From IMG/VR virus record IMGVR_UViG_2693429768_000001, positions 12,099 through 76,098 of that record: a DNA stretch of 64,000 nt; one strand, 5' to 3'. Position numbers and translations under genes: made by a program. Of this stretch, positions 1,437 to 57,636 are shown one piece after another (the first letter of the stretch is position 1; each line of letters starts with the position of its first letter). This DNA is from a virus (lineage: Duplodnaviria; Heunggongvirae; Uroviricota; Caudoviricetes). The notes beneath the pieces were generated by a model. That model did no database searches. It was not told where the DNA came from and worked only from the letters and a program-made list of their open reading frames with translations.

Positions 1437-2237
1437 ATGCAACAAACATTCAATGCGGATATGAATATATCAAACCTTCATCAAAATGTCGATCCTTCAA
1501 CCACTCTGCCCGTTATTTGTGGTGTTGAAATTACGACCGACCGCGCTGGCCGTTACAACCTTAATGCTCTACACAGAGCGAGCGGACTCGGTGCCCATAA
1601 AGCGCCAGCTCAATGGCTAAGAACGCTGTCAGCCAAACAGCTCATCGAAGAGCTTGAAAAAGAAACTATGCAGAATTGCATAGTTTCGTTCGAAGGCCGT
1701 GGCGGCGGCACTTTTGCCCATGAATTGCTCGCAGTGGAGTACGCAGGCTGGATTTCTCCCGCGTTTCGGCTGAAGGTAAACCAGACATTTATCGACTATC
1801 GAGCCGGAAGATTACAACCTGCTATTCCGAAGAGCCTCCCAGAAGCTCTCCGTTTGGCTGCTGACCTGGCAGAGCAAAAGCAACGGCTGGAGCAAAAAAT
1901 GCTGATGGATGCACCTAAAGTCGAATTCGCCGAACGCGTTGCTACCGCCAGCGGGGTTCTAATCGGCAACTATGCCAAAGTGCTCGGCCTGGGCCAAAAC
2001 TATCTCTTCACCTGGTTGCGTGATAACGGAATTCTGATCGCAACCGGTGAACGCAGGAACGTCCCCAAACAAGAATACATATCCCGTGGGTATTTCACCC
2101 TTAAAGAAACCGTGATCGATACAAGCAATGGAAGCAGGATTTCTTTCACGACTCGTATAACCGGCAAAGGTCAGCAGTGGCTGATGAAGCGATTGCTTGA
2201 TGCTGGTGTGCTGGTACCTGTCGCGGCAACGCGCTAA
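1437..2237 (+). CDS. kilA: KilA (KilA-N domain plus antirepressor-type C-terminal domain), 266 aa
   Basis: Length, N-terminal KilA-N-like region, C-terminal domain paralogous to Ant, immediately upstream of repL. Confidence 0.85.
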   Translation: MQQTFNADMNISNLHQNVDPSTTLPVICGVEITTDRAGRYNLNALHRASGLGAHKAPAQWLRTLSAKQLIEELEKETMQNCIVSFEGRGGGTFAHELLAVEYAGWISPAFRLKVNQTFIDYRAGRLQPAIPKSLPEALRLAADLAEQKQRLEQKMLMDAPKVEFAERVATASGVLIGNYAKVLGLGQNYLFTWLRDNGILIATGERRNVPKQEYISRGYFTLKETVIDTSNGSRISFTTRITGKGQQWLMKRLLDAGVLVPVAATR

Positions 2238-2266
2238 CAGACGTAGTAAGAACCACCAGCATTGTA

Positions 2267-3112
2267 ATGCTGGCTAAAGTCACTTTCCTGAGCTGTATAA
2301 CGATGAGCGATTTTACTTTTTCTGGCTATGAATTGGCCTTCTTTGTAACACACTCCGGTCTATCCCGTAGCGCCGGGCATATCCTGTCGCAATGTGCAAA
2401 TCTCGCGGCAACAACCAGTGAATACTTCATTCACAAGCCCCACCGCCTGATCGCGGCAGAAACTGGTTATAGCCAATCAACCGTCGTTCGTGCATTCCGT
2501 GAAGCTGTAAACAAAGGAATTCTATCTGTAGAGATTGTTATCGGCGATCACCGTGAACGTCGCGCTAACCTGTACCGGTTTACACCATCCTTTTTGGCCT
2601 TCGCACAACAAGCCAAAAATGCGCTGATTGAAAGCAAATTAAAGATCTCTTCAGCGGCAACCAAGGTTAAAGCTGTTCTCGCTAAGACATTGGCTTTATT
2701 TAATTTTTTATCCACACCCCCATGTCAAAATGATACCCCCTCCCCCTGTCAGGATGACGTGGCAATAAAGAATAAGAAGTCACAAGTTAAAAAAACAAAA
2801 AGATCAGTTTCCGGCGGTGCCGGAACGACCAGACTCAAAAAATTGACTTCATGGATCGCTGAGGCAAAAGCAAAGGCTGACAATCTGCGGTTATCCAAAA
2901 AACGCGCTCAAAAACATGAGTTCAAGCAGAAAGTAGAGGCGGCAGCGCGGAAATATGCTTACCTGAAGGACAAGCGTTCTCCTGATATTGGCGGGATATC
3001 AAACTTCGATAATCTGCCGCATTGCATGACGGTAAACGAAGCTCTTAATGCGGTTTTAGCCAAAAATAAAGATAACGAAAAATGGGGTATACCGGCAGGA
3101 TTCAGGGGATGA
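2267..3112 (+). CDS. repL: RepL lytic replication initiator (oriL expected inside the gene)
   Basis: 281-aa ORF recognised as P1 RepL by sequence and position after kilA. Confidence 0.9.
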   Translation: MLAKVTFLSCITMSDFTFSGYELAFFVTHSGLSRSAGHILSQCANLAATTSEYFIHKPHRLIAAETGYSQSTVVRAFREAVNKGILSVEIVIGDHRERRANLYRFTPSFLAFAQQAKNALIESKLKISSAATKVKAVLAKTLALFNFLSTPPCQNDTPSPCQDDVAIKNKKSQVKKTKRSVSGGAGTTRLKKLTSWIAEAKAKADNLRLSKKRAQKHEFKQKVEAAARKYAYLKDKRSPDIGGISNFDNLPHCMTVNEALNAVLAKNKDNEKWGIPAGFRG

Positions 3113-3429
3113 TAGATTGCTCTAATCTGGAGTCACCTGGCGTTTTCAGTTTGAGGTCGGAGATGCAATCTGATTTTTTACAGTTAGCGATCGCTTTTGC
3201 AGGATATGTTTGTATTGGCTTCTGTGTATACATGATCAGCCGAAAAATGCTTGTCGATATCGACCGCAAAGAACGAGCAGAGGAGATCTTAGTATGGATT
3301 TTCTTTGGCGCGGTCTGGCCATTAGGGATCATGTTTGCTGCAACATTTCTTCGATGTGGATATTCACCCTTCCAGGTGATTTCTATAGAAAAAAAGCCAG
3401 ACATTGATACAATCGTTGCGGGTGCTTGA
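3082..3429 (+). CDS. Hypothetical small membrane protein downstream of repL; start uncertain
   Basis: ORF with two hydrophobic segments overlapping the repL end; followed by a 10-bp stem hairpin at 3432-3466. Confidence 0.3.
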   Translation: MGYTGRIQGMIDCSNLESPGVFSLRSEMQSDFLQLAIAFAGYVCIGFCVYMISRKMLVDIDRKERAEEILVWIFFGAVWPLGIMFAATFLRCGYSPFQVISIEKKPDIDTIVAGA

Positions 3430-3439
3430 GGCTATCTGC

Positions 3440-3535
3440 TTCAGGCATGACCCGAAAAGCAGATAGAAGAAAGCCCCAGATAACATTACGCGTCCTGCAA
3501 GACGCTTAACATTAATCTGAGGCCATATCTATGCT
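3440..3535 (-). ncRNA. Region where a Sok-like antisense RNA would be expected (not resolved)
   Basis: Inference only, from hok/sok locus architecture; no promoter or terminator mapped. Confidence 0.2.
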
Positions 3536-3737
3536 TAGCATACGTAGATTAGCCTCTTACCGACCAAAAGGTCAAGGAGAAGCAGGCTATGAAGCAGCAA
3601 AAAGCGATGTTAATCGCTCTGATCGTCATCTGTTTAACCGTCATTGTGACGGCACTGGTAACGAGGAAAGACCTCTGCGAGGTACGAATCCGAACCGGCC
3701 AGACGGAGGTCACTGTCTTCACAGCCTACGAATCTGA
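3531..3737 (+). CDS. Mok-like overlapping reading frame of the hok-like locus
   Basis: 68-codon ORF starting 58 nt upstream of the hok-like ATG and overlapping it in another frame, as for mok/hok. Confidence 0.4.
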   Translation: MLSIRRLASYRPKGQGEAGYEAAKSDVNRSDRHLFNRHCDGTGNEERPLRGTNPNRPDGGHCLHSLRI

Positions 3738-3744
3738 AAGGTAA
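3589..3744 (+). CDS. Hok/Gef-family type I toxin, 51 aa
   Basis: MKQQKAMLIALIVICLTVIVTALVTRKDLCEVRIRTGQTEVTVFTAYESER: single TM helix and conserved C-terminal block (TRK.LCE.R...EV..F.AYES) as in R1 Hok; SD AGGAGA upstream. Confidence 0.8.
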   Translation: MKQQKAMLIALIVICLTVIVTALVTRKDLCEVRIRTGQTEVTVFTAYESER

Positions 3745-4039
3745 GAGACCTGGCGGGGAGTGATCCCCGTCACTCTTCGTGTGTCTGGTAACCTCAATGC
3801 ACCCTTTTCTCCCCAATAGTGTAAAACACAATGAAGTAGAAGGAGTTATTTCACATCATGCAAAGATTCAGACCATATCTCCCAATAGCCTTCGCGACAT
3901 GATGACTTTCAGAAATATCTAGCTGTTAACAAAATTCCATACTTGCTTTGCTAATACCACCTAGATTATATATGGAAAAATACACCTAAAACTTAAACAA
4001 ATTATATCCACAACAAACATCCATCTATTAGGATTAAAA

Positions 4040-4092
4040 TTAATTTAATAATAAATAATACAACACCGGTTCATTTTCTAACAAACCGGTGG
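4040..4092 (-). terminator. Hairpin (accggtt/aaccggt) plus A/T-rich tract downstream of the MazG-like gene
   Basis: 7-bp inverted repeat with 12-nt loop directly after the stop codon, followed on the minus strand by a U-rich run. Confidence 0.4.
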
Positions 4093-4098
4093 GCACCA

Positions 4099-5091
4099 TT
4101 ATTGGAATAACTTACTGATTACATTAAAAACATTAAGGGCGTTACTTGCCACACTAGACATCTTGGCTGAATTTTTTTCGATTGAGTCAAGAACACTTTC
4201 GACTTCCGATAAAGTTCTTCTGCTATCTGCATCTTTTCCTGAGTCTATCGCATCTTTAATTGCAGATATAGCAGACTCTAAATTCTCCTTAAACTCACCT
4301 GTCGTCTCATCCTTCAAGAGAAGTTCTAACTCTTGTTTAAGTTTTTCCAATGATGCTCTTTTCTCATCAGTTTTACTAATCTTCCCTGAATAACTGACAC
4401 AAACACATTCTCTTTTATTGCAGACAGGACAACCATTTAGATAATAACTTTCAAACGCCTCGCCAAGATCATCATCTTTAAAAATAATCCCCCATAAAGA
4501 AAACAACCAAGCATATATATCAGCACACTCTTCATGAAGATTTTCTTTGTTGTAATTTTTATCTTCAATTGATTTAGCATAAGCCTCTTGCAACTCACCC
4601 AACTCTTCGAATAACCTGGATGAATGATAAAACCCACCAAAAGTAGACCAAATGGTTCTATTCGACGGATAGATGTCATTAATCATTCGTGGCGCATAAG
4701 GCGGAAATTGCATAGGTTTAATAGCGTTATATTTATTGAAAAGCTCATCTTTAATTCCTTTTGCGCTTCTTATTTTCTCTGGCTTTCTGTGTGTTTGAGA
4801 ACAGGAACAAGGCGCCCCTAAGCAATAAGGACAGCAACTAGGAAATTTTTTATAAAATGCTTCCTGTGGTTGTATTTCAAGTTTATCACAGATTGCAAAA
4901 AGCCAAGACAATGCTTCTATATAGGTATTTTTTAATAATTCTTTATCCTGATTACCATCACGAATAAACTCACGTGTTAAATAAGCTGTTTTCCTTGTCA
5001 GATAAGAGTACATATACTCAAATGATTTTTCTTCATTTTTTTTGCTGTAAATACCTACAATAATATTGCTCATATCATTGATACGTAACAT
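4099..5091 (-). CDS. MazG/HisE-like NTP pyrophosphohydrolase-type protein with two Cys-rich zinc-ribbon-like clusters and a C-terminal coiled-coil tail (about 330 aa from the SD-supported ATG)
   Basis: Motifs RLFEELGELQEAY and HEECADIYAWLFSL (EExxE...E..D pattern); Cys clusters CCPYCLGAPCSCS and CPVCNKRECVC; gene and flanks are visibly AT-rich; SD AAGAGGA before the ATG at 5091. Confidence 0.6.
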   Translation of the reverse strand: MLRINDMSNIIVGIYSKKNEEKSFEYMYSYLTRKTAYLTREFIRDGNQDKELLKNTYIEALSWLFAICDKLEIQPQEAFYKKFPSCCPYCLGAPCSCSQTHRKPEKIRSAKGIKDELFNKYNAIKPMQFPPYAPRMINDIYPSNRTIWSTFGGFYHSSRLFEELGELQEAYAKSIEDKNYNKENLHEECADIYAWLFSLWGIIFKDDDLGEAFESYYLNGCPVCNKRECVCVSYSGKISKTDEKRASLEKLKQELELLLKDETTGEFKENLESAISAIKDAIDSGKDADSRRTLSEVESVLDSIEKNSAKMSSVASNALNVFNVISKLFQ

Positions 5092-5388
5092 GACATTCCT
5101 CTTAAATAAGCCAATACTTCCTAGAACCATATATGCTTCGACAAAGATTAACGGACATCTTGCCTTCACAAACTTTGACGCTACATAAATTTAACCATGT
5201 GCATACTAAATATTTAAGGTAGAAAAGTATAGGAGTATTTATTAATAGGTAACTGTTAGTTTACACTCACTTCATACCAGAGTATTTACAAGATGTTATT
5301 TTACTCTATTCGCTAGGCGGTGGAATGCGGTTGTATCAAGGGGAGGTAAACCTCCCCCGAAGAAGATTAAAAGTACAAGGGATAACAC

Positions 5389-5898
5389 TTAATCCCACTC
5401 AATCCAGTTGTAGACGATACGAAGTGACGGGCGCACAGCGGCAGTCACATCTTCGGTACTAAAGTCGATTGCATCACTGTAGATTTTGCAGTCCAACATT
5501 TCAATTGTTGTAGCAGCTTTTGTCACAGCGTTAACCCCGGAAGATTTGGATTCAGGGGTAGCAGCCATCGTGATATCAACATAGTCCTTCGCCGCAATGC
5601 GATCTTTAATGAACTGAAGAATATCGCCTTCGATAGTCTCCACGCACTGGACCTGGATTTCCCCAGAGTTTCGAATTGGACCGTGCTGGTTGAACTTCAC
5701 ACCATTCGGACCATAGTCCTCCACATCCTCGCGGGTCATTTCAGGAATTTGCGACGTGCGAACCAGTACGCTGATATCTTCATGGCCTGCAAAAGTGAGC
5801 TGGAATTCAGAAGATACCAGTCGTTCGCCTTTGGCCGCGTTGGCAGTATAGCGGCCCTTAATAAATTTACGGTTTCCCTTAGTGTTATTGTGCCCCAT
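5389..5898 (-). CDS. Putative tail tube-like protein (169 aa)
   Basis: Size and weak resemblance to myovirus tube proteins (C-terminal ...NWIEWD); lies in the block with the sheath-like gene. Confidence 0.4.
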   Translation of the reverse strand: MGHNNTKGNRKFIKGRYTANAAKGERLVSSEFQLTFAGHEDISVLVRTSQIPEMTREDVEDYGPNGVKFNQHGPIRNSGEIQVQCVETIEGDILQFIKDRIAAKDYVDITMAATPESKSSGVNAVTKAATTIEMLDCKIYSDAIDFSTEDVTAAVRPSLRIVYNWIEWD

Positions 5899-5909
5899 AT
5901 AAAATCCTT

Positions 5910-6491
5910 TTACTGGAACGCCCGAACAATATCGGAGCTGTTATATATCGAAGAACCGGTCAACTGGAGGTTGACGGTGTTTTTCAGGAAATGCCCATTG
6001 CTGTCCCTGGGTGCATCGAGATCGAAACTTATGTCCTGGATAGCGACATCAATGATGTTGATCCGGCGACCAATGTTTAGCGTCACACGCTCCGGGATTC
6101 GACCGCCAATACTGGCATCTTTAAGTTCCGGGCTAATCATCGCTGACAATGCGGCGATAGCTCCTGAAACCTCCGTGAATGGGTCAAACAAAGCGATGAA
6201 AGTTACTGGCAGCGTGAAAGTCGGCGGTGTTCCCCCCTCCCAAACCATTAAGCTGTTCCAACGGGCCACCGACGTTGTTTCAGTACCAACCTGCGCAAAA
6301 CCACTGAAAGCACCAGCAACAGACCCCATGGACATACCGGTAAACGGCGCTTCCCAATTCTGGGCCATGTTCATTGCTGCCCCCTGGCTGATATATCCGG
6401 TAACCTGGTACTGAGAGTTCGTTAAAGTAACTTTCAGAAATGGCGATACACCATCAGCCTGGCTGTAAACCCCATAAGGTATAGGTGCCAT
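5910..6491 (-). CDS. Hypothetical virion/tail protein (193 aa)
   Basis: Tightly packed in the same minus-strand operon as sheath and tube candidates. Confidence 0.35.
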   Translation of the reverse strand: MAPIPYGVYSQADGVSPFLKVTLTNSQYQVTGYISQGAAMNMAQNWEAPFTGMSMGSVAGAFSGFAQVGTETTSVARWNSLMVWEGGTPPTFTLPVTFIALFDPFTEVSGAIAALSAMISPELKDASIGGRIPERVTLNIGRRINIIDVAIQDISFDLDAPRDSNGHFLKNTVNLQLTGSSIYNSSDIVRAFQ

Positions 6492-6526: not shown

Positions 6527-7342
6527 TTAGCCAAGGCGCTTACGGCGCAGTTTCATTGACTTTTTGCGGGCAAGTTTTGCCGCGCCGGTCTGGGCTTTTC
6601 GACGCGCTTTTTTCAGCGCCGATTTTTGAGCCGCAGTCAGACGTTTTTTCCGCAGGCGTTTACGGATGAGTTTGATCTCACCGTTACGAACAACCTTCTT
6701 AAATGCTTCAGTCAGCATTTCATCAGAAGTGCCAGCAACAACAAACGCCGCTTCCAGTTCGTCGCGGTCGTCGCTATCTAAACCAGCGATAGAGGCACCA
6801 ACATCAGCAGCAGCGTCGTCGTCTTCATCGTCAGCCAGTGCTTCGATCATGTCATCATCTACACCGCATGCTGCGAGGAAGTCAGCAACATTTGCCCATG
6901 CTTCGTTATAGGCATCGTCCTGTTCTTCTGTAACTTCGGAGTCGTCGTCATCAGAGATACCAGCGATAGCCTGAACGAAACCATCAAGGGAGTCGAAAGT
7001 CAGATCACCGCTATCAGCCCAGGCGAAAACGGCGTCGGCCGCATCACTCAACGCATTCTGCATCGCACTTCGATTTGCAGCTTCCAGAATCATCTGGTGC
7101 GCCTGTTCAACGGTCCATTCTTTACCGTCTTTCTCTTCCAGGATTTGCTCAGGAGCCGGATCAGATGGAACGTTATCGTTAGTCTGTGCCGCCGGTTCCG
7201 GATTATTATTAATAACCGGATCTGTTGGCGGTTCGGCGCTTGCTCGGGCAGACTCCATCAGCTGCACAGGATCAGAGTTCAAAGCGAAACGGGACAGTCC
7301 ATTCCCCAAAAATGCCCCGGATTGAAAAAAGTTTTTGCTCAT
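6527..7342 (-). CDS. Hypothetical highly acidic protein with lysine/arginine-rich C-terminus (271 aa)
   Basis: Long ORF with extreme acidic composition and basic tail; operon position between structural genes. Confidence 0.4.
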   Translation of the reverse strand: MSKNFFQSGAFLGNGLSRFALNSDPVQLMESARASAEPPTDPVINNNPEPAAQTNDNVPSDPAPEQILEEKDGKEWTVEQAHQMILEAANRSAMQNALSDAADAVFAWADSGDLTFDSLDGFVQAIAGISDDDDSEVTEEQDDAYNEAWANVADFLAACGVDDDMIEALADDEDDDAAADVGASIAGLDSDDRDELEAAFVVAGTSDEMLTEAFKKVVRNGEIKLIRKRLRKKRLTAAQKSALKKARRKAQTGAAKLARKKSMKLRRKRLG

Positions 7343-7351
7343 TGTATTCCC

Positions 7352-8941
7352 TTACTTAATAAGCAGCGGTACGCCCTGGATACGACGGGCTACGCCAGTC
7401 GGGCAGCAGGCCCAGACTGCTTCCCATTTATCGAATTCCGCCTGCGTAACTTTCAGCACATACGGTTCTGTACCGTCAGCATCAGGATCACGAGGAGCCA
7501 CCAGAGCGCCGGAGGCGACAAAGCGATCTAAAAGTTTGGTCATCCCTTTAGTCAGACCAGCCGCAGTAATACCGTCCGGGCTATGCTTCATCTGTCGGGC
7601 TAACTGGACAAAGAAACGGCTGATTGCATTCATCAGGGATGGGACGTGCTGGAAGTGCAGATAGTTATCCTGCGTGCAGCAAGTTAAAGCATCGTCGATG
7701 ATCATCTGGCCAGAGGTGCCAACAGATACTTTATTGAGACGGCCCTTGACCATTGCTTCTTCGTCCGGGGTATCTTCCGGATACAGCGGTTGAATTGACG
7801 CACGAGCAATGACGGCACGTTCTTCACCAGCCGGTGAGTAATGCCAACCGCCGACATCAGAGTTTTTCTTGACGCCACGAGCTTTCGCCGCATACGCCGA
7901 GCCAGACAGACCGAAGACCACACGGGATTGGGTCCATTTGTCTTTGCAGGAGAACGGGAAGTGATAGACAGCACAGCTTACATAATCGGTACCAAGTAAA
8001 CCGGTATCTTCAACAGCAGAGATCGCTTCCGTGTACGTCAATGTCGGTTTGACATCAAAGAAGCCATCAATCAGGCGATCTGCACAGATTTTACCTAATG
8101 CGGTGATAGCCGCATTGTCATAGCAGCCCAAGCCAAGAACAGCGGTGTACATGTACGGCGCATTGTTCAGCACTTTCACCGCACGCAGGTACGCAGCGGT
8201 TGAGATTTTCGACTGATCACCGTTGGTACCACCAGTGAACGCCAACGATTTTTTGTTTGTTACTTTCGCTGTAGAAATCAGCTCTTCATTAACAACCGCG
8301 CGCAGATATTTAGAACGGGCTTCCAGAGCCGTAGGCAGATAACACAAGCGGCCCATGTCATCTTTCGCTTCTTCCGCCAAAGACACAGTGTGTGTCTCCA
8401 GGGTCGTTACCACACCGAGCGAAGTCGTCTGGGTCAGTTTTAAGAGGAAGCGTTCATTACCCGCGCTGTCCGCTGTTGCCGTTTCGATGGTTAACTCACG
8501 GGTAGGTGAAATACACGGATCACCATCATCAACGTAGATAGCAAAGGCTTCGCCGCTATCAAGTTCAATTTCAGAACCATATGGCAACGCACTGTAAGCC
8601 GGTTCGCCTGATTCATCGAACATAATAATCGGGAACTTCGCATCATCCGGAACAGCACGGACAACATAACCAGACGTTTGCTGAATAGCTTCGTACACAT
8701 GGCGAATTGGTTCGAACTGTGAGCCGGAGGACGGCTTCAGCGGTTCGCCGAGAACATCTTCGTAATTGGACTCAGTAACTGCAAGAACAGTAAACGGCTT
8801 GCCACGCGCAAATACGCCAATACCAGCCCACAAGCTGCTATTTAATGCAACACCGGTAGATAACGTCGCATCGGCATTGATCGGGCTAACAGCGACGCCG
8901 GATGCATTACCTAATGACTGTTGAATTGAATATTGAGACAT
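7352..8941 (-). CDS. Putative contractile tail sheath protein (529 aa)
   Basis: Size and position upstream of tube-like genes; corresponds by synteny to P1 gene 22. Confidence 0.5.
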   Translation of the reverse strand: MSQYSIQQSLGNASGVAVSPINADATLSTGVALNSSLWAGIGVFARGKPFTVLAVTESNYEDVLGEPLKPSSGSQFEPIRHVYEAIQQTSGYVVRAVPDDAKFPIIMFDESGEPAYSALPYGSEIELDSGEAFAIYVDDGDPCISPTRELTIETATADSAGNERFLLKLTQTTSLGVVTTLETHTVSLAEEAKDDMGRLCYLPTALEARSKYLRAVVNEELISTAKVTNKKSLAFTGGTNGDQSKISTAAYLRAVKVLNNAPYMYTAVLGLGCYDNAAITALGKICADRLIDGFFDVKPTLTYTEAISAVEDTGLLGTDYVSCAVYHFPFSCKDKWTQSRVVFGLSGSAYAAKARGVKKNSDVGGWHYSPAGEERAVIARASIQPLYPEDTPDEEAMVKGRLNKVSVGTSGQMIIDDALTCCTQDNYLHFQHVPSLMNAISRFFVQLARQMKHSPDGITAAGLTKGMTKLLDRFVASGALVAPRDPDADGTEPYVLKVTQAEFDKWEAVWACCPTGVARRIQGVPLLIK

Positions 8942-11940: not shown

Positions 11941-13148
11941 GCCGCCTCACCCCTAACAAACTCAATTCGATCAAACACAGCCTTAGTGAAACGCTCGGCC
12001 TCGGTTCGTGCCTTCTTCAGCGCCTCTGCACTGCCTGGATACGATTGCGGGTTGGCACTGATTACGGTGTCGAAAGACTCGCCGCATCGCTCAAATCCAT
12101 CCAGACGAGGCAGAGAAGAGTCCAGAATGTTGCTGGCGTAAACCTCACGCGCAAGGCTGTGTGATGTCTCGTGATCGCGCTTGCCGGTCATCTTCGACAT
12201 AAAACCAATGCTGGCGCTTAAACGCGGTTCTACGCCTTCCTCCTCCAGTTGCTCCAGCATTTCTGGCAGACGGGTGAGATATTTCAGTGTTGAGTGGAAG
12301 TCAACCTGGGCTGGTGGGGTAGGGGTAAGCAGCAAATCGCTGGCCGCCAGACCGTTGAGCAGGAACGGATCCAGGTGTGGACCGGTATCAATAAAGATAA
12401 AGTCATAATCATCCGCAACACGATCAATGATATTGCGTCGAAGGATTTCGTACTGATTTTGTCCGGGAAGATGCTCTTCAACCAGCTCTTTCCATTGGCT
12501 GGCAACAAAGCCATCGTCGATAGAGGCTGGAATCACGTCTACGCCAGGAACGATGGTCGGACGAATCACCTCTTTGCGTAGCGTCTCCGCGTCCAGGTCG
12601 TTCAGCATCGCCTGCGCGGCGGTTTCCAGGATGGAACCAATACTGTGAGTATGGTCGAGGAACATTGTGCTGGATGCCTGAGGGTCAAGGTCAATTACCA
12701 GAATGCGCAGATCGTGACGCAGTAAATCCTGATGCACACGCAGAGCGTGCGCCAACGTGACTGTGGAAACCGTTTTGGATACGCCACCCTTCAGGTTTAC
12801 GACAAAAATAACGTAAGGCGATTTGTGAATGTCGCGATATTTTGGGATCTTACGGTGGGCATAGATATCAATGACGTTCTGGATGGTCAGCGCGTACTGT
12901 TCAACGTTACCGACCTGTTTCTTGTTGAACTGGTACCCATCATCTTCCATCTCTTTGATGGCCTGCTCCACAATGCGGCGGCTCAGCTTCGGCAACTTTG
13001 CCACAGCGTTACGAGTGAACGTCTGATAATACTCGGTCTGATTGAACTCTTTGCGCTGATCTTCAATATCCTGACTCATGGCCTTAAGTAATGCGCTTGC
13101 ACGAAGAGCTATGGTGCCGACACCGCCGTAATCGCGTTTCATCATCAT
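11937..13148 (-). CDS. parA: ParA partition ATPase (403 aa)
   Basis: Deviant Walker A KGGVSKT; overlaps parB start; P1 synteny. Confidence 0.9.
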   Translation of the reverse strand: MMMKRDYGGVGTIALRASALLKAMSQDIEDQRKEFNQTEYYQTFTRNAVAKLPKLSRRIVEQAIKEMEDDGYQFNKKQVGNVEQYALTIQNVIDIYAHRKIPKYRDIHKSPYVIFVVNLKGGVSKTVSTVTLAHALRVHQDLLRHDLRILVIDLDPQASSTMFLDHTHSIGSILETAAQAMLNDLDAETLRKEVIRPTIVPGVDVIPASIDDGFVASQWKELVEEHLPGQNQYEILRRNIIDRVADDYDFIFIDTGPHLDPFLLNGLAASDLLLTPTPPAQVDFHSTLKYLTRLPEMLEQLEEEGVEPRLSASIGFMSKMTGKRDHETSHSLAREVYASNILDSSLPRLDGFERCGESFDTVISANPQSYPGSAEALKKARTEAERFTKAVFDRIEFVRGEAA

Positions 13149-55343: not shown

Positions 55344-55985
55344 ATGGATAAGAAAATATGCGTTGTTTCGATGAGCGTCGGCAAACCGGCGTCAATGACT
55401 GCTGCATGGATCAACAATGAGCTAATAATGGCTGAGCGGACCAGCTACCCTGAACGCCGCCGCGATATGGAACTCCAGCTGCTGCGCGAATTGCGAGAAA
55501 AAGAGGAAAAGGGTTTTATCGTGCTGGTGGAAGAGGAAAACAGCTTTATTACTGGTCGAGTTGGCCAGCGTGTAAGGTTGCGCGATCCCTTCATGAACGG
55601 CAGGCCGGTACTAATTGAGGCAATGCAGATTTATAAGGAGCTGGAACGCCAGAAAGCAATCAAGTTACCGCGCAAGGAATCCGGCAAATACATCCTCCAC
55701 CAAAGCATCTTCGATTCCGAACACGATAAAAAAGGCGATGAATTTTTCAACATCAACTGGAGCGAAATAACGACAGAGCATGTTCTGACGTTACTATGTT
55801 GCTTTGCGACGGAATACAACAACGTTGCCAGCGCCGACTACATCAGGGCAATGGCTGGAGAAGTTGAGGCACGCCAGGAACCATCGTTACTAAGCCCTCT
55901 GATTAACATAATTCGCGGCACCCAAACGCTGGCACAAAAACAGGTGCCTAAGGGAGTATTAACAGGAAAAGGAAATTATCTATAA
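55344..55985 (+). CDS. Hypothetical protein (P1 mat position), 213 aa from SD-supported ATG
   Basis: ORF with SD GGGGG; backbone-like composition. Confidence 0.4.
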   Translation: MDKKICVVSMSVGKPASMTAAWINNELIMAERTSYPERRRDMELQLLRELREKEEKGFIVLVEEENSFITGRVGQRVRLRDPFMNGRPVLIEAMQIYKELERQKAIKLPRKESGKYILHQSIFDSEHDKKGDEFFNINWSEITTEHVLTLLCCFATEYNNVASADYIRAMAGEVEARQEPSLLSPLINIIRGTQTLAQKQVPKGVLTGKGNYL

Positions 55986-56041
55986 ACGTCAATGCATTAG
56001 GGTATACTTCTCCGTAGAACTATAAGTAAATGGAGTAAGTA

Positions 56042-57346
56042 ATGAGCGAGTATATAGAAATTGCCTATGCAGCGGCTACACATAGGCTGTGCTTTCTTAC
56101 AGGCACTGGATTTTCAAAGGCTGTTTCTGATGATAAAGCCCCAAGTTGGCAATCTTTATTGGAGCAACTGTGCGGTTTATTGAAGGATGGTGACTCACTC
56201 AAAGAGGAATTATTTCCTGATGGAAAAGCAAAAGACCTTAGCCTTGAAGAAGCTGCTCAGGTTATTGCACTAAAATTTATACTTTCGGGGAAAAATATTT
56301 ACCAAGAGATTGAGAAAATCATAGCCTCAATCGAACTTGATCCATCAATTGAATATATTCAAGACTTTTTCAAAGAAAACACATTTAAAGTAATTACGAC
56401 AAATTATGACAAGTTAGCAGAAAAGCTGGCTGGAGAGAATCGAACGTGTACAATCACCCCCGGCCTGCCAATTCCAAAATATAATTGTGAGGTTAAAGTC
56501 TACCATGTTCACGGTTCTATAGACTCCCCATCAGACATGGTTGTTACTAGCGAGGATTATTTCAGATTTATAAATGGTAATTCTTACTTTTCTAATAAAC
56601 TAAGCACAGTTCTACATGAAAACACTATTGTTATCCTTGGCTATTCTCTAAGTGACGCGAACCTAAAGGCTATTATAAATGAATATAAGGTATTTTCACG
56701 GGACAACGTAATGTCCTCCAATATTTTCCTTGTTTCCCGAGGGGAACTATTGCAACCTATTAAAGATTACTATTTTTCCTGCTATGGGGTTAGGGTTATA
56801 GATAAAACAGAGGTATCTGATTTCTTTAGAAAACTTAACGATAAAATTCCAGAAGCAAAAAAAATAAAAGACAAATTGAGGCACTCAATCAAATCGGTAA
56901 TAAAAAACGGAAGAGAGTATAAAATAGAGTTCTTGAAGCTAGAGGATTCTTTTTATCATATCATTTCCTCCATTTCATCATCTGGATATAGCTGGAATAA
57001 TGAAAATGTATTAAATGTTTTTTGTAATATAATAGATAAAAAAATAGAACTTACTAAAAAGCCTGGCGCATGGGAGCAGTATGAACACCTGGCAAAATGG
57101 CTTATTTATTTCGGTAGTTTATTTGAAGTAAAAGGAACCAATTTTGAGAAAAAATACATACATGCGGTTGAACACTCAATGACTTATATGAATAAACCTT
57201 ACGAAACAGGCTACTCATGGCTAGCATATCTAGCCTGGAAAACAAAATGGCCTTCACTGACAGCATCTAACCGCTCTCTTATTAAGAATGAGATGGAAGA
57301 TATCCCGCTACAACAGATTCACGATATTGTATCTAAGTTTATATAG
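56042..57346 (+). CDS. SIR2-like (SIR2_2-type) protein with uncharacterised C-terminal domain, 434 aa; candidate NAD-depleting defence effector
   Basis: Motifs FLTGTGFS, ITTNYD and VYHVHGS in N-terminal half; AT-rich gene with own SD; lies where P1 carries res-mod. Confidence 0.75.
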   Translation: MSEYIEIAYAAATHRLCFLTGTGFSKAVSDDKAPSWQSLLEQLCGLLKDGDSLKEELFPDGKAKDLSLEEAAQVIALKFILSGKNIYQEIEKIIASIELDPSIEYIQDFFKENTFKVITTNYDKLAEKLAGENRTCTITPGLPIPKYNCEVKVYHVHGSIDSPSDMVVTSEDYFRFINGNSYFSNKLSTVLHENTIVILGYSLSDANLKAIINEYKVFSRDNVMSSNIFLVSRGELLQPIKDYYFSCYGVRVIDKTEVSDFFRKLNDKIPEAKKIKDKLRHSIKSVIKNGREYKIEFLKLEDSFYHIISSISSSGYSWNNENVLNVFCNIIDKKIELTKKPGAWEQYEHLAKWLIYFGSLFEVKGTNFEKKYIHAVEHSMTYMNKPYETGYSWLAYLAWKTKWPSLTASNRSLIKNEMEDIPLQQIHDIVSKFI

Positions 57347-57355
57347 TATATTTAT

Positions 57356-57382
57356 CTCCGGCCTAATCTCCCTAGGCCGGAG
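57356..57382. terminator. 10-bp perfect GC-rich inverted repeat (ctccggccta / taggccggag) between convergent genes
   Basis: Hairpin read directly; no clean U-tract on either strand, so function as bidirectional terminator is inferred. Confidence 0.45.
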
Positions 57383-57387
57383 AGTTC

Positions 57388-57636
57388 TTAATCAGCATTC
57401 AGAAGCAATGCGTTATCTATGATGATCTGCTCCCATTCTTCGAATGCCCGGTCGCGGACGCCCTGGGGAACACTGTTTGTTTTGAAATCGACGACCGTCC
57501 GCCATTTCCCGTCCGGACGGTACATGCGCAGAGCTTTACTTCCCCCTTCCCTGCGCACCTCAACGTTATGCTTGTCAGCAAACTCTTGTAATGCTCGTAG
57601 CGTCCCATGCTTTACTGTGTAGTATCGCTTTTTCAA
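57388..57636 (-). CDS. Small protein, 82 aa (size and position of P1 Lxc/Bof)
   Basis: Size matches recalled Bof; located downstream of ulx-sized gene and darB on the same strand. Confidence 0.45.
   Translation of the reverse strand: MKKRYYTVKHGTLRALQEFADKHNVEVRREGGSKALRMYRPDGKWRTVVDFKTNSVPQGVRDRAFEEWEQIIIDNALLLNAD

Follow-up and report, generated by a model that had tools for sequence, protein, structure and literature searches.

What is a solitary AT-rich gene doing between the replication genes and the tail operon of a P1-like phage-plasmid? We analysed a stretch of 64,000 nucleotides (the window) from the virus record IMGVR_UViG_2693429768_000001, positions 12,099 to 76,098, which is a P1-like phage-plasmid with kilA, repL and bplB proteins 98-99% identical to those of phage P1. 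Between repL and bplB lies an AT-rich island holding one gene only, at 4099-5091 on the minus strand, and this gene encodes a protein of two tandem MazG-like modules, each followed by a zinc knuckle, and a helical tail. Membership of the protein in the all-alpha nucleoside triphosphate (NTP) pyrophosphohydrolase (MazG-like) superfamily is well supported by sequence comparison and modelling, and the data also support the island as horizontally acquired accessory cargo (a moron) in a hypervariable slot. As to function, we favour a candidate single-gene, nucleotide-directed anti-phage or superinfection-exclusion role that would protect the P1 lysogen, and we judge the chances of this reading to be about even.

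The gene and its expression signals are as follows.

4099..5091, minus strand: coding sequence of 330 amino acids plus stop codon, the tandem MazG-like/zinc-knuckle protein (open reading frame (ORF); PGAP 'MazG-like family protein', WP_000944483.1)
5097..5103, minus strand: Shine-Dalgarno sequence AAGAGGA, 5 nt before the start codon at 5091 (read from the sequence)
4054..4091, minus strand: intrinsic-terminator-like hairpin with a 12-bp stem, a 4-nt loop and a T-rich tail (terminator scan)

An earlier note on this DNA, made from the letters alone, had described a single minus-strand gene at 4099-5091 with its own Shine-Dalgarno sequence and a downstream hairpin, and each of these elements was found, the hairpin lying at 4091-4064, 8 nt past the stop codon. 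Likewise, the protein motifs quoted in that note, RLFEELGELQEAY, HEECADIYAWLFSL, CCPYCLGAPCSCS and CPVCNKRECVC, all occur in the translation. The ATG at 5091 gives a product of 330 amino acids, as in the PGAP call and in all homologs, and an identical gene is annotated in 17-19 Escherichia coli plasmids. A GTG start at 5169 (356 amino acids) was rejected because its N-terminal extension is present in no homolog.

The protein was compared with 28 full-length homologs of ~330 amino acids, obtained by a search of 5.8 billion proteins, and an exhaustive profile search returned 992 cluster representatives at E<=0.001, of which 100 reached E<=1e-30. Five parts can be told apart along the chain.

4846..5091, minus strand: module 1 (amino acids 1-82), a degenerate MazG-like helical module (hhalign against module 2)
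4792..4845, minus strand: zinc knuckle 1 (amino acids 83-100), FP-x2-C87-P-Y-C90-x4-C95-x-C97 (alignment conservation)
4444..4689, minus strand: module 2 (amino acids 135-216), an intact MazG catalytic module (conservation and profile matches)
4393..4443, minus strand: zinc knuckle 2 (amino acids 217-233), C221-P-x-C224-x4-C229-x-C231 (alignment conservation)
4102..4383, minus strand: C-terminal helical tail (amino acids 237-330), four predicted helices (AlphaFold2)

The intact module carries the motif E162-E163-L-G-E166, followed after 21 residues by E188-C-A-D191, and these five acids are 93-96% conserved in 175 representatives and invariant in the 28-member family. In module 1 the EExxE motif is lost, with L31-T-R-K-T35 aligned in its place, while Y15, N19 and W63 have been kept. 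Homology between the two modules emerges from hhalign (local probability 94.3%, E 9.6e-8), and in the AlphaFold2 model the helices of module 1 span residues 4-19, 24-44, 50-70 and 75-82. The cysteines of both clusters are essentially invariant: in the first knuckle C87 and C90 are found in 157 of 157 aligned representatives, C95 in 157 of 158 and C97 in 155 of 157, and those of the second knuckle are invariant (168-169 of 168-169). The model, built from the 28-sequence alignment, has a mean predicted local distance difference test score (pLDDT) of 81.9 and a predicted template modelling score of 0.70, with the core mostly >90. In the tail, where the predicted helices span residues 237-259, 262-284, 287-307 and 312-329, pLDDT is 58-79; this is the most variable region of the protein, with a mean pairwise identity of 0.31 as against 0.61 for module 2.

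In profile comparisons, the family profile matched MazG SSO3215 (1vmg) in the PDB with E 9.7e-5 over amino acids 156-218, and the NTP pyrophosphohydrolase family phrog_2245 was matched with E 3.5e-6. The assignment to the superfamily rests on these matches together with the conservation of the motif and the AlphaFold2 model, and both an all-alpha four-helix-bundle fold and the metal-binding EExxE...ExxD motif are seen. The earlier note had proposed a degenerate and an intact NTP pyrophosphohydrolase module, a cysteine cluster after each and a long coiled-coil tail, and had named the lack of such a fold in profile searches as grounds for giving the proposal up; hhalign, the alignment and the model bear out the architecture, and the 1vmg match bears out the fold. 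Foldseek searches of the PDB and BFVD gave no match at E<=0.001, only consistent themes. Membership in the dimeric-dUTPase family proper is not supported, and the Pfam model of that family gave no match even at E<=10.

The core of the protein is found elsewhere fused to other domains with its catalytic and cysteine residues kept. These fusions are more telling than any other result. TIR domains occur at either end of the core, and a TIR of the CAP12/Pycsar-effector type is a further partner. Of 21 genomic loci, 6 encode a fusion to a CHAT caspase-like protease; a PNP/UDP-type phosphorylase is also joined to the core, and a dCMP/cytidine deaminase or Ser/Thr kinase domains are attached N-terminally; GGDEF is attached C-terminally in 3 representatives and at 6 of the 21 loci. 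The plain form seen here, core plus a tail of ~100 amino acids, accounts for 108 of the 175 sequences examined, and 23 have little or nothing past the second zinc knuckle (20 short core-only proteins and 3 with an N-terminal extension), while the remaining sequences having both zinc clusters carry extra domains. Prokaryotic immune proteins characteristically use TIR, CHAT, PNP and deaminase domains as their outputs. Because it is joined to immune-type as well as signalling domains, the core may be a nucleotide-binding and nucleotide-hydrolysing module able to serve as input to different outputs.

A broader proposal can be made from these fusions, which we regard as possible but on balance doubtful: the tandem MazG and double zinc-knuckle core may define a widespread, undescribed family of single-protein immune switches with interchangeable outputs (helical tail, TIR, CAP12-type TIR, CHAT, PNP-like nucleosidase, deaminase, GGDEF and kinase), of which the gene on the P1-like element would be the minimal phage-borne form. 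In a sharper version, the core would recognise or destroy a phage-specific nucleotide, for instance a modified deoxynucleoside triphosphate (dNTP) such as hydroxymethyl-dCTP, or dUTP. If this were true, such a target would allow constitutive defence without toxicity to the host.

Where the family resides bears on the same question. Its relatives span many phyla and include bacteria and at least one archaeon, and four kinds of mobile element carry a solo cargo copy, namely P1-like, P2-like, lambdoid and filamentous. In a P2-like phage the homolog (79% identity) lies between gpS and gpV, and homologs at the ends of P2-like prophages adjoin tail-fibre genes or the integrase; in a lambdoid prophage the homolog lies between replication/methylase genes and ant/Q. 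A full-length homolog with 29% identity is encoded at 6649-7641 of an 8-kb filamentous phage of Vibrio cyclitrophicus (Tubulavirales; PQ189347.1, locus L001), where it is the terminal cargo gene and adjoins a transcription regulator; therefore, filamentous phages carry the family too. This Vibrio inovirus was the single match when the MazG-like protein was searched by tblastn against all phage records. Many homologs are chromosomal and have no phage context.

The neighbourhoods of the homologs were also surveyed. On a metagenomic contig (locus L014), a complete DRT type 1 system at 2109-6256 on the minus strand, consisting of Drt1a (1,234 amino acids, 2,601 bits) and Drt1b, lies ~700 bp from homolog P0020. 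For 32 genomic homologs, the two closest ORFs to the left and the two closest to the right were scanned, and very strong matches were obtained to Type I, Type IIG and Type III restriction-modification systems, a DRT reverse transcriptase-helicase, PD-T4-6, PDC-S13 and MADS components. The gene and its relatives thus occupy variable sites of mobile elements and, in part, defence islands. ORF clustering within 6 kb on either side of 41 homolog loci revealed no family-wide partner gene. Only one subclade, ~53% identical to the query and comprising Pectobacterium, Pantoea and their relatives, has a constant neighbour: downstream of the MazG-like gene there is in every case a conserved protein of ~248 amino acids with N- and C-terminal transmembrane segments and a central coiled coil, which may be a membrane effector partner (L008 11080-11826, L012 11077-11823, L007 11038-11805 and L062 5157-5924); it has no Pfam or PADLOC match, and no trace of it was found in the window. 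A Vibrionaceae-type homolog, P0028, stands immediately downstream of nrdA and nrdB (L013 3769-8341), which is a nucleotide-metabolism context and not a defence island.

The island itself was delimited by composition and by comparison with MH422554, a collinear genome without it.

3817..5355, no strand: AT-rich insertion of 1,539 bp, GC ~0.34 (blastn against island-free MH422554)

GC content is 0.325-0.352 in 400-bp windows over 3801-5400 and 0.42-0.53 in the flanks. The interval 3850-5385, in which the earlier note had placed the island, has a GC content of 0.341 and falls ~4 standard deviations under the mean of the window (0.478, standard deviation 0.033, 1,536-bp windows), and the island is the lowest-GC 1.5 kb of the entire 64 kb. 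The contrast with the backbone therefore stood in the sliding profile, but the exact limits did not: blastn aligns window positions 3300-3816 and 5356-5900 with MH422554 (locus L004), where ~11 bp lie between the two segments, and the insertion is 3817-5355. Neither a target-site duplication nor terminal inverted repeats were found at 3817/5355, and the DNA shared with the P2-like phage insertion is restricted to the coding sequence (blastn). On these grounds transposon-type mobility was rejected, and the cargo probably entered by recombination. Downstream of the gene, the 282 bp of non-coding DNA hold no ORF of at least 20 amino acids wholly inside them, the ORFs that overlap their left edge all starting in the hok backbone, and an Rfam scan found no family inside the island. 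A GC-rich hairpin, GGGGAGG-TAAA-CCTCCCC, at 5340-5357 straddles the right boundary just past bplB, and MH422554 has a different hairpin, GCTCC-CGAA-GGAGC, at the corresponding site; therefore, the post-bplB hairpin, possibly a terminator, is partly exchanged along with the cargo.

Two backbone features flank the insertion.

3420..3744, plus strand: hok/sok type I toxin-antitoxin, left flank, backbone and not insertion (Hok coding sequence 3589-3744; Rfam sok 113.9 bits; Pfam HOK_GEF E 2.4e-22)
5389..5898, minus strand: bplB, right flank, last conserved gene of the P1 tail/baseplate operon (tblastn with P1 BplB, 99.4% identity)

The MazG-like gene lies directly downstream of bplB in the same orientation, and the flanks of the island match many Punavirus records. 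What stands between repL and bplB varies greatly from one relative to the next. In P1, P7 and JL22 the space is occupied by rlfA, rlfB and pmgF, in MH422554 it contains hok/sok only, and in RCS47 an IS605-family transposase and an unannotated 198-aa gene are found; in the window, the order is a small ORF for a possible membrane protein, hok/sok and then the island. The hok/sok flank is common to the window and MH422554, and reference P1 has rlfA/rlfB there. With at least six alternative contents among P1 relatives, the slot is hypervariable, and it appears to be a cargo hotspot of P1-like elements that is still unexplored. Searches by tblastn with P1 PmgF, RlfA and RlfB found no homolog of these proteins anywhere in the window, and the MazG-like gene is missing from P1, P7, JL22, RCS47, SJ46 and MH422554. 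The changing contents of the slot, together with the lack of rlfA, rlfB and pmgF homologs here, indicate that the gene does not belong to P1 morphogenesis. The earlier note could not say whether reference P1 has a homolog at this position; the locus comparison answers that it does not.

Copies with 99.7-100% identity to the island were found in 17 PLSDB plasmids and, among complete E. coli genomes, in 19, plasmid-borne every time. P1-type bplB-pmgG DNA is present in 708 of 5,426 complete E. coli genomes (~13%), so that the 19 genomes with the island correspond to ~2.7% of the ~708 P1-like elements in E. coli. No homolog was found in PLSDB on any other plasmid type. Horizontal acquisition, which the earlier note had read from the composition, is thus also indicated by absence from island-free relatives (P1, P7, JL22 and MH422554), by this sporadic carriage and by the presence of the gene in unrelated phage backbones.

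Further variation was seen at the slot and close to it. Directly downstream of bplB, in the place taken here by the MazG-like gene, a different unannotated minus-strand gene is found in each of RCS47 (L066 3766-4362, 198 amino acids), SJ46 (L068 4266-4898, 210 amino acids) and vB_EcoM-673R5 (L069 3591-4106, 171 amino acids). In pUTAK-22-3, IS421 is inserted between hok and the island. Just past repL, an ORF of 115 amino acids at 3082-3429 on the plus strand has a hydrophobic stretch and is possibly a membrane protein; it matched no family in Pfam or PADLOC, and related plasmids have a shorter version of it, annotated as a hypothetical protein. A second, diverged KilA-like segment at 856-1263 on the plus strand, upstream of the canonical kilA (1437-2234), shows 65% identity to P1 KilA over 136 amino acids and probably represents the KilAC domain of the Ant antirepressor.

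The TIR, CHAT, deaminase and PNP fusions and the one DRT1 neighbour lead us to favour defence as the role of the gene, and we infer an enzymatic activity, a substrate, roles for the zinc knuckles and the tail, and a defence phenotype along the following lines. An ancestral MazG-like four-helix module with a four-cysteine zinc knuckle would have been duplicated, after which the N-terminal copy lost its catalytic acids and probably came to supply substrate-recognition residues, with Y15, N19 and W63 as candidates for substrate contact. The protein would then be a pseudo-heterodimer with one active site, in which the C-terminal copy, keeping the Mg2+-binding EExxE...ExxD motif, would split a nucleotide at its alpha-beta phosphoanhydride bond. 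The zinc knuckles are probably structural braces of the bundle, and the fast-diverging four-helix tail probably serves oligomerisation, regulation or autoinhibition, or the sensing of a trigger. On infection, depletion of (d)NTPs or destruction of a phage-specific nucleotide would halt replication of the incoming phage; alternatively, nucleotide binding may be the input of an immune switch.

Several observations weigh against a defence role. The Pfam MazG model (PF03819) gives the protein 14.5 bits, below its 22-bit cut-off, which the relatives P0158 (29.1 bits) and P0142 (27.1 bits) exceed, and no match to the protein was found in NCBIfam. No defence model of PADLOC-DB v2 matches it, the best hit being LmuB with E 0.015 on the coiled-coil tail. 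A promoter scan found no convincing sigma-70 promoter upstream of the ATG, and the gene may be transcribed by read-through from the late tail operon instead of from a promoter of its own. Fusions to GGDEF and Ser/Thr kinase domains are equally typical of ordinary signal transduction. Many neighbours of the homologs are housekeeping genes, such as nrdAB and those for ribosomal protein S2 and DNA polymerase III alpha; therefore, the association with defence islands, tallied without a background rate, is real but partial. In addition, the one phage MazG whose part in immunity has been characterised by experiment acts in anti-defence: Atd1, a MazG-like pyrophosphatase of a Pectobacterium phage, depletes (p)ppGpp and makes TIR-STING and retron-TIR systems less toxic (bioRxiv 10.1101/2022.06.09.495361).

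Atd1 is the precedent for counter-defence, the alternative that survives best and one that we nevertheless consider unlikely. Here, the protein would hydrolyse an alarmone ((p)ppGpp) or the cyclic or linear second messengers of CBASS-, Pycsar- or Thoeris-type systems and would thereby shield the P1-like element, or the phage in its lytic growth. The place of the gene directly downstream of the late tail operon, and co-oriented with it, suits lytic expression, and the carriers are phages of four different types. These carriers are, however, temperate or chromosomal elements, many homologs being chromosomal without phage context, and Atd1 has no tandem module, no zinc knuckles and no tail. Moreover, we regard TIR, CHAT, PNP and deaminase fusions as typical of host immune proteins and not of inhibitors, and one homolog stands beside DRT1 and others beside restriction-modification systems.

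Housekeeping of the nucleotide pool is a less probable explanation still, and a rather remote one in our estimate. The protein would act as a dUTPase, a dCTPase or a house-cleaning enzyme that removes dUTP or damaged dNTPs for P1 replication, with no role in conflict, which fits the dUTPase-like fold. Such a service is difficult to reconcile with a gene that only ~2.7% of P1-like elements carry and that reference P1 manages without, and the Pfam dimeric-dUTPase model does not recognise the protein at E<=10. It also leaves the TIR, CHAT and CAP12-TIR fusions, the hypervariable tail and the moron positions in unrelated phages unexplained.

The layout of some relatives raises the further possibility, which we rate as very improbable, of a generic nucleotide-sensing regulator, whose core would report on the nucleotide pool and modulate lysogeny or host physiology without attacking phages. 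A core placed N-terminal to GGDEF, and the kinase fusions, resemble ordinary signal-transduction layouts, and the housekeeping neighbours at many chromosomal homologs agree with this. Nevertheless, the protein on the P1-like element has no recognisable output domain beyond its helical tail, its catalytic residues are strongly conserved, and the mobile-element cargo pattern together with the immune-type fusions argues for conflict. Lastly, a conserved P1 morphogenetic gene needed for particle assembly, which the earlier note had named as an outcome that would overturn its view, can be excluded for all practical purposes, since, although position and orientation directly downstream of bplB are those of pmgF, the protein has no homology to PmgF, pmgF has no homolog in the window, the fold is that of an enzyme and not of a structural protein, and the gene is absent from P1, P7 and the other Punavirus phage genome records examined.

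A second AT-rich stretch of the element deserves mention beside the island. At ~55650-57600 (GC ~0.36), the second most AT-rich stretch, an ORF of 434 amino acids at 56042-57346 on the plus strand belongs to the SIR2 family, with PADLOC matches to PDC-S25 (1.9e-24), the SIR2 domain of ThsA (7.7e-18), LmuA (1.5e-13) and Dsr2 (4e-8). This ORF is probably another single-gene defence moron, and with such a match to defence models in the second stretch, both AT-rich single-gene islands of the element look like defence cargo.

How the protein compares with known systems can now be stated. With the MazG superfamily (E. coli MazG, SSO3215 (1vmg), YpjD (2gta) and integron-type MazG) it shares the four-helix bundle, the EExxE...ExxD motif and the profile match, and in E. 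coli MazG, too, two modules stand in tandem and are unequal in activity. It differs from them in adding an invariant CPxC-x4-CxC knuckle to each module and a helical tail of ~95 amino acids, in having wholly lost the catalytic acids of its N-terminal module, and in being sporadic mobile cargo instead of a core gene. Dimeric dUTPases (from phages, 5myd/5myf; from Campylobacter jejuni, 1w2y; and from trypanosomatids, 1ogk/2cje) show only 7% sequence identity to it and, unlike it, are without zinc knuckles and without a tail. The logic proposed for the P1-borne gene is the same as in nucleotide-depletion defences (dCTP deaminase/dGTPase, AvcD), namely one enzyme attacking the (d)NTP pool, and some relatives of the protein carry an N-terminal dCMP/cytidine deaminase domain; however, the protein is not homologous in sequence to the dGTPase or dCTP-deaminase proteins of defence.

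CapRel(SJ46) is reportedly a one-gene defence of a P1-like prophage, whose C-terminal domain keeps the enzyme autoinhibited and also serves as the sensor of a phage protein. Its likeness to the present protein, a nucleotide-acting N-terminal enzyme joined to a variable C-terminal domain, is conceptual only, and it offers a possible model for the tail. The folds are unrelated, CapRel(SJ46) being a RelA/SpoT-like pyrophosphokinase and the protein here a MazG-like pyrophosphohydrolase, and the repL-bplB slot of SJ46 holds other genes. Atd1 is alike in being a phage-borne MazG-type pyrophosphatase in phage-host conflict, where a MazG fold can decide an infection through the nucleotide pool. It consists of the MazG catalytic domain only and serves counter-defence, whereas the present protein is a 330-aa tandem with knuckles and tail in temperate or chromosomal carriers; the Atd1-like arrangement, a MazG domain only near anti-defence genes, is not what we found.

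Elsewhere, MazG has been predicted to replace the dNTP-targeting Calcineurin-CE effector in rare PUA-HAD systems (bioRxiv 10.64898/2026.01.15.699771), and these predicted MazG variants of PUA-Cal-HAD systems have a PUA/HAD partner, which the gene here has not. MazG also figures among the predicted, unvalidated defence domains of the DefensePredictor paper, there in a different setting, MazG plus MazG-C kinase (PMC13092281). In the literature searched on the accession, on MazG with TIR, CHAT or zinc ribbon, and on P1/P2 hotspots, no description of the protein or its architecture was found; we regard the architecture as new because it is absent from PADLOC v2, NCBIfam and this literature. Should the defence role hold, the protein would be the first experimentally tractable MazG-fold immune protein of a host or prophage, MazG being otherwise predicted in defence and shown in counter-defence with Atd1. 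It would also bring a new module, input or effector, into the repertoire of domains recombining with TIR, CHAT, PNP and deaminase effectors, and would single out the repL-bplB slot of P1-like phage-plasmids as a hotspot in which a search for further cargo is worthwhile. The system is small and tractable, with a 993-bp gene, an E. coli host and clear catalytic residues. Taken together, neither the enzyme superfamily nor the idea of nucleotide-directed defence is new; what is new is the tandem, tailed architecture with double zinc knuckles, its fusions, and its presence in P1-like, P2-like, lambdoid and filamentous elements.

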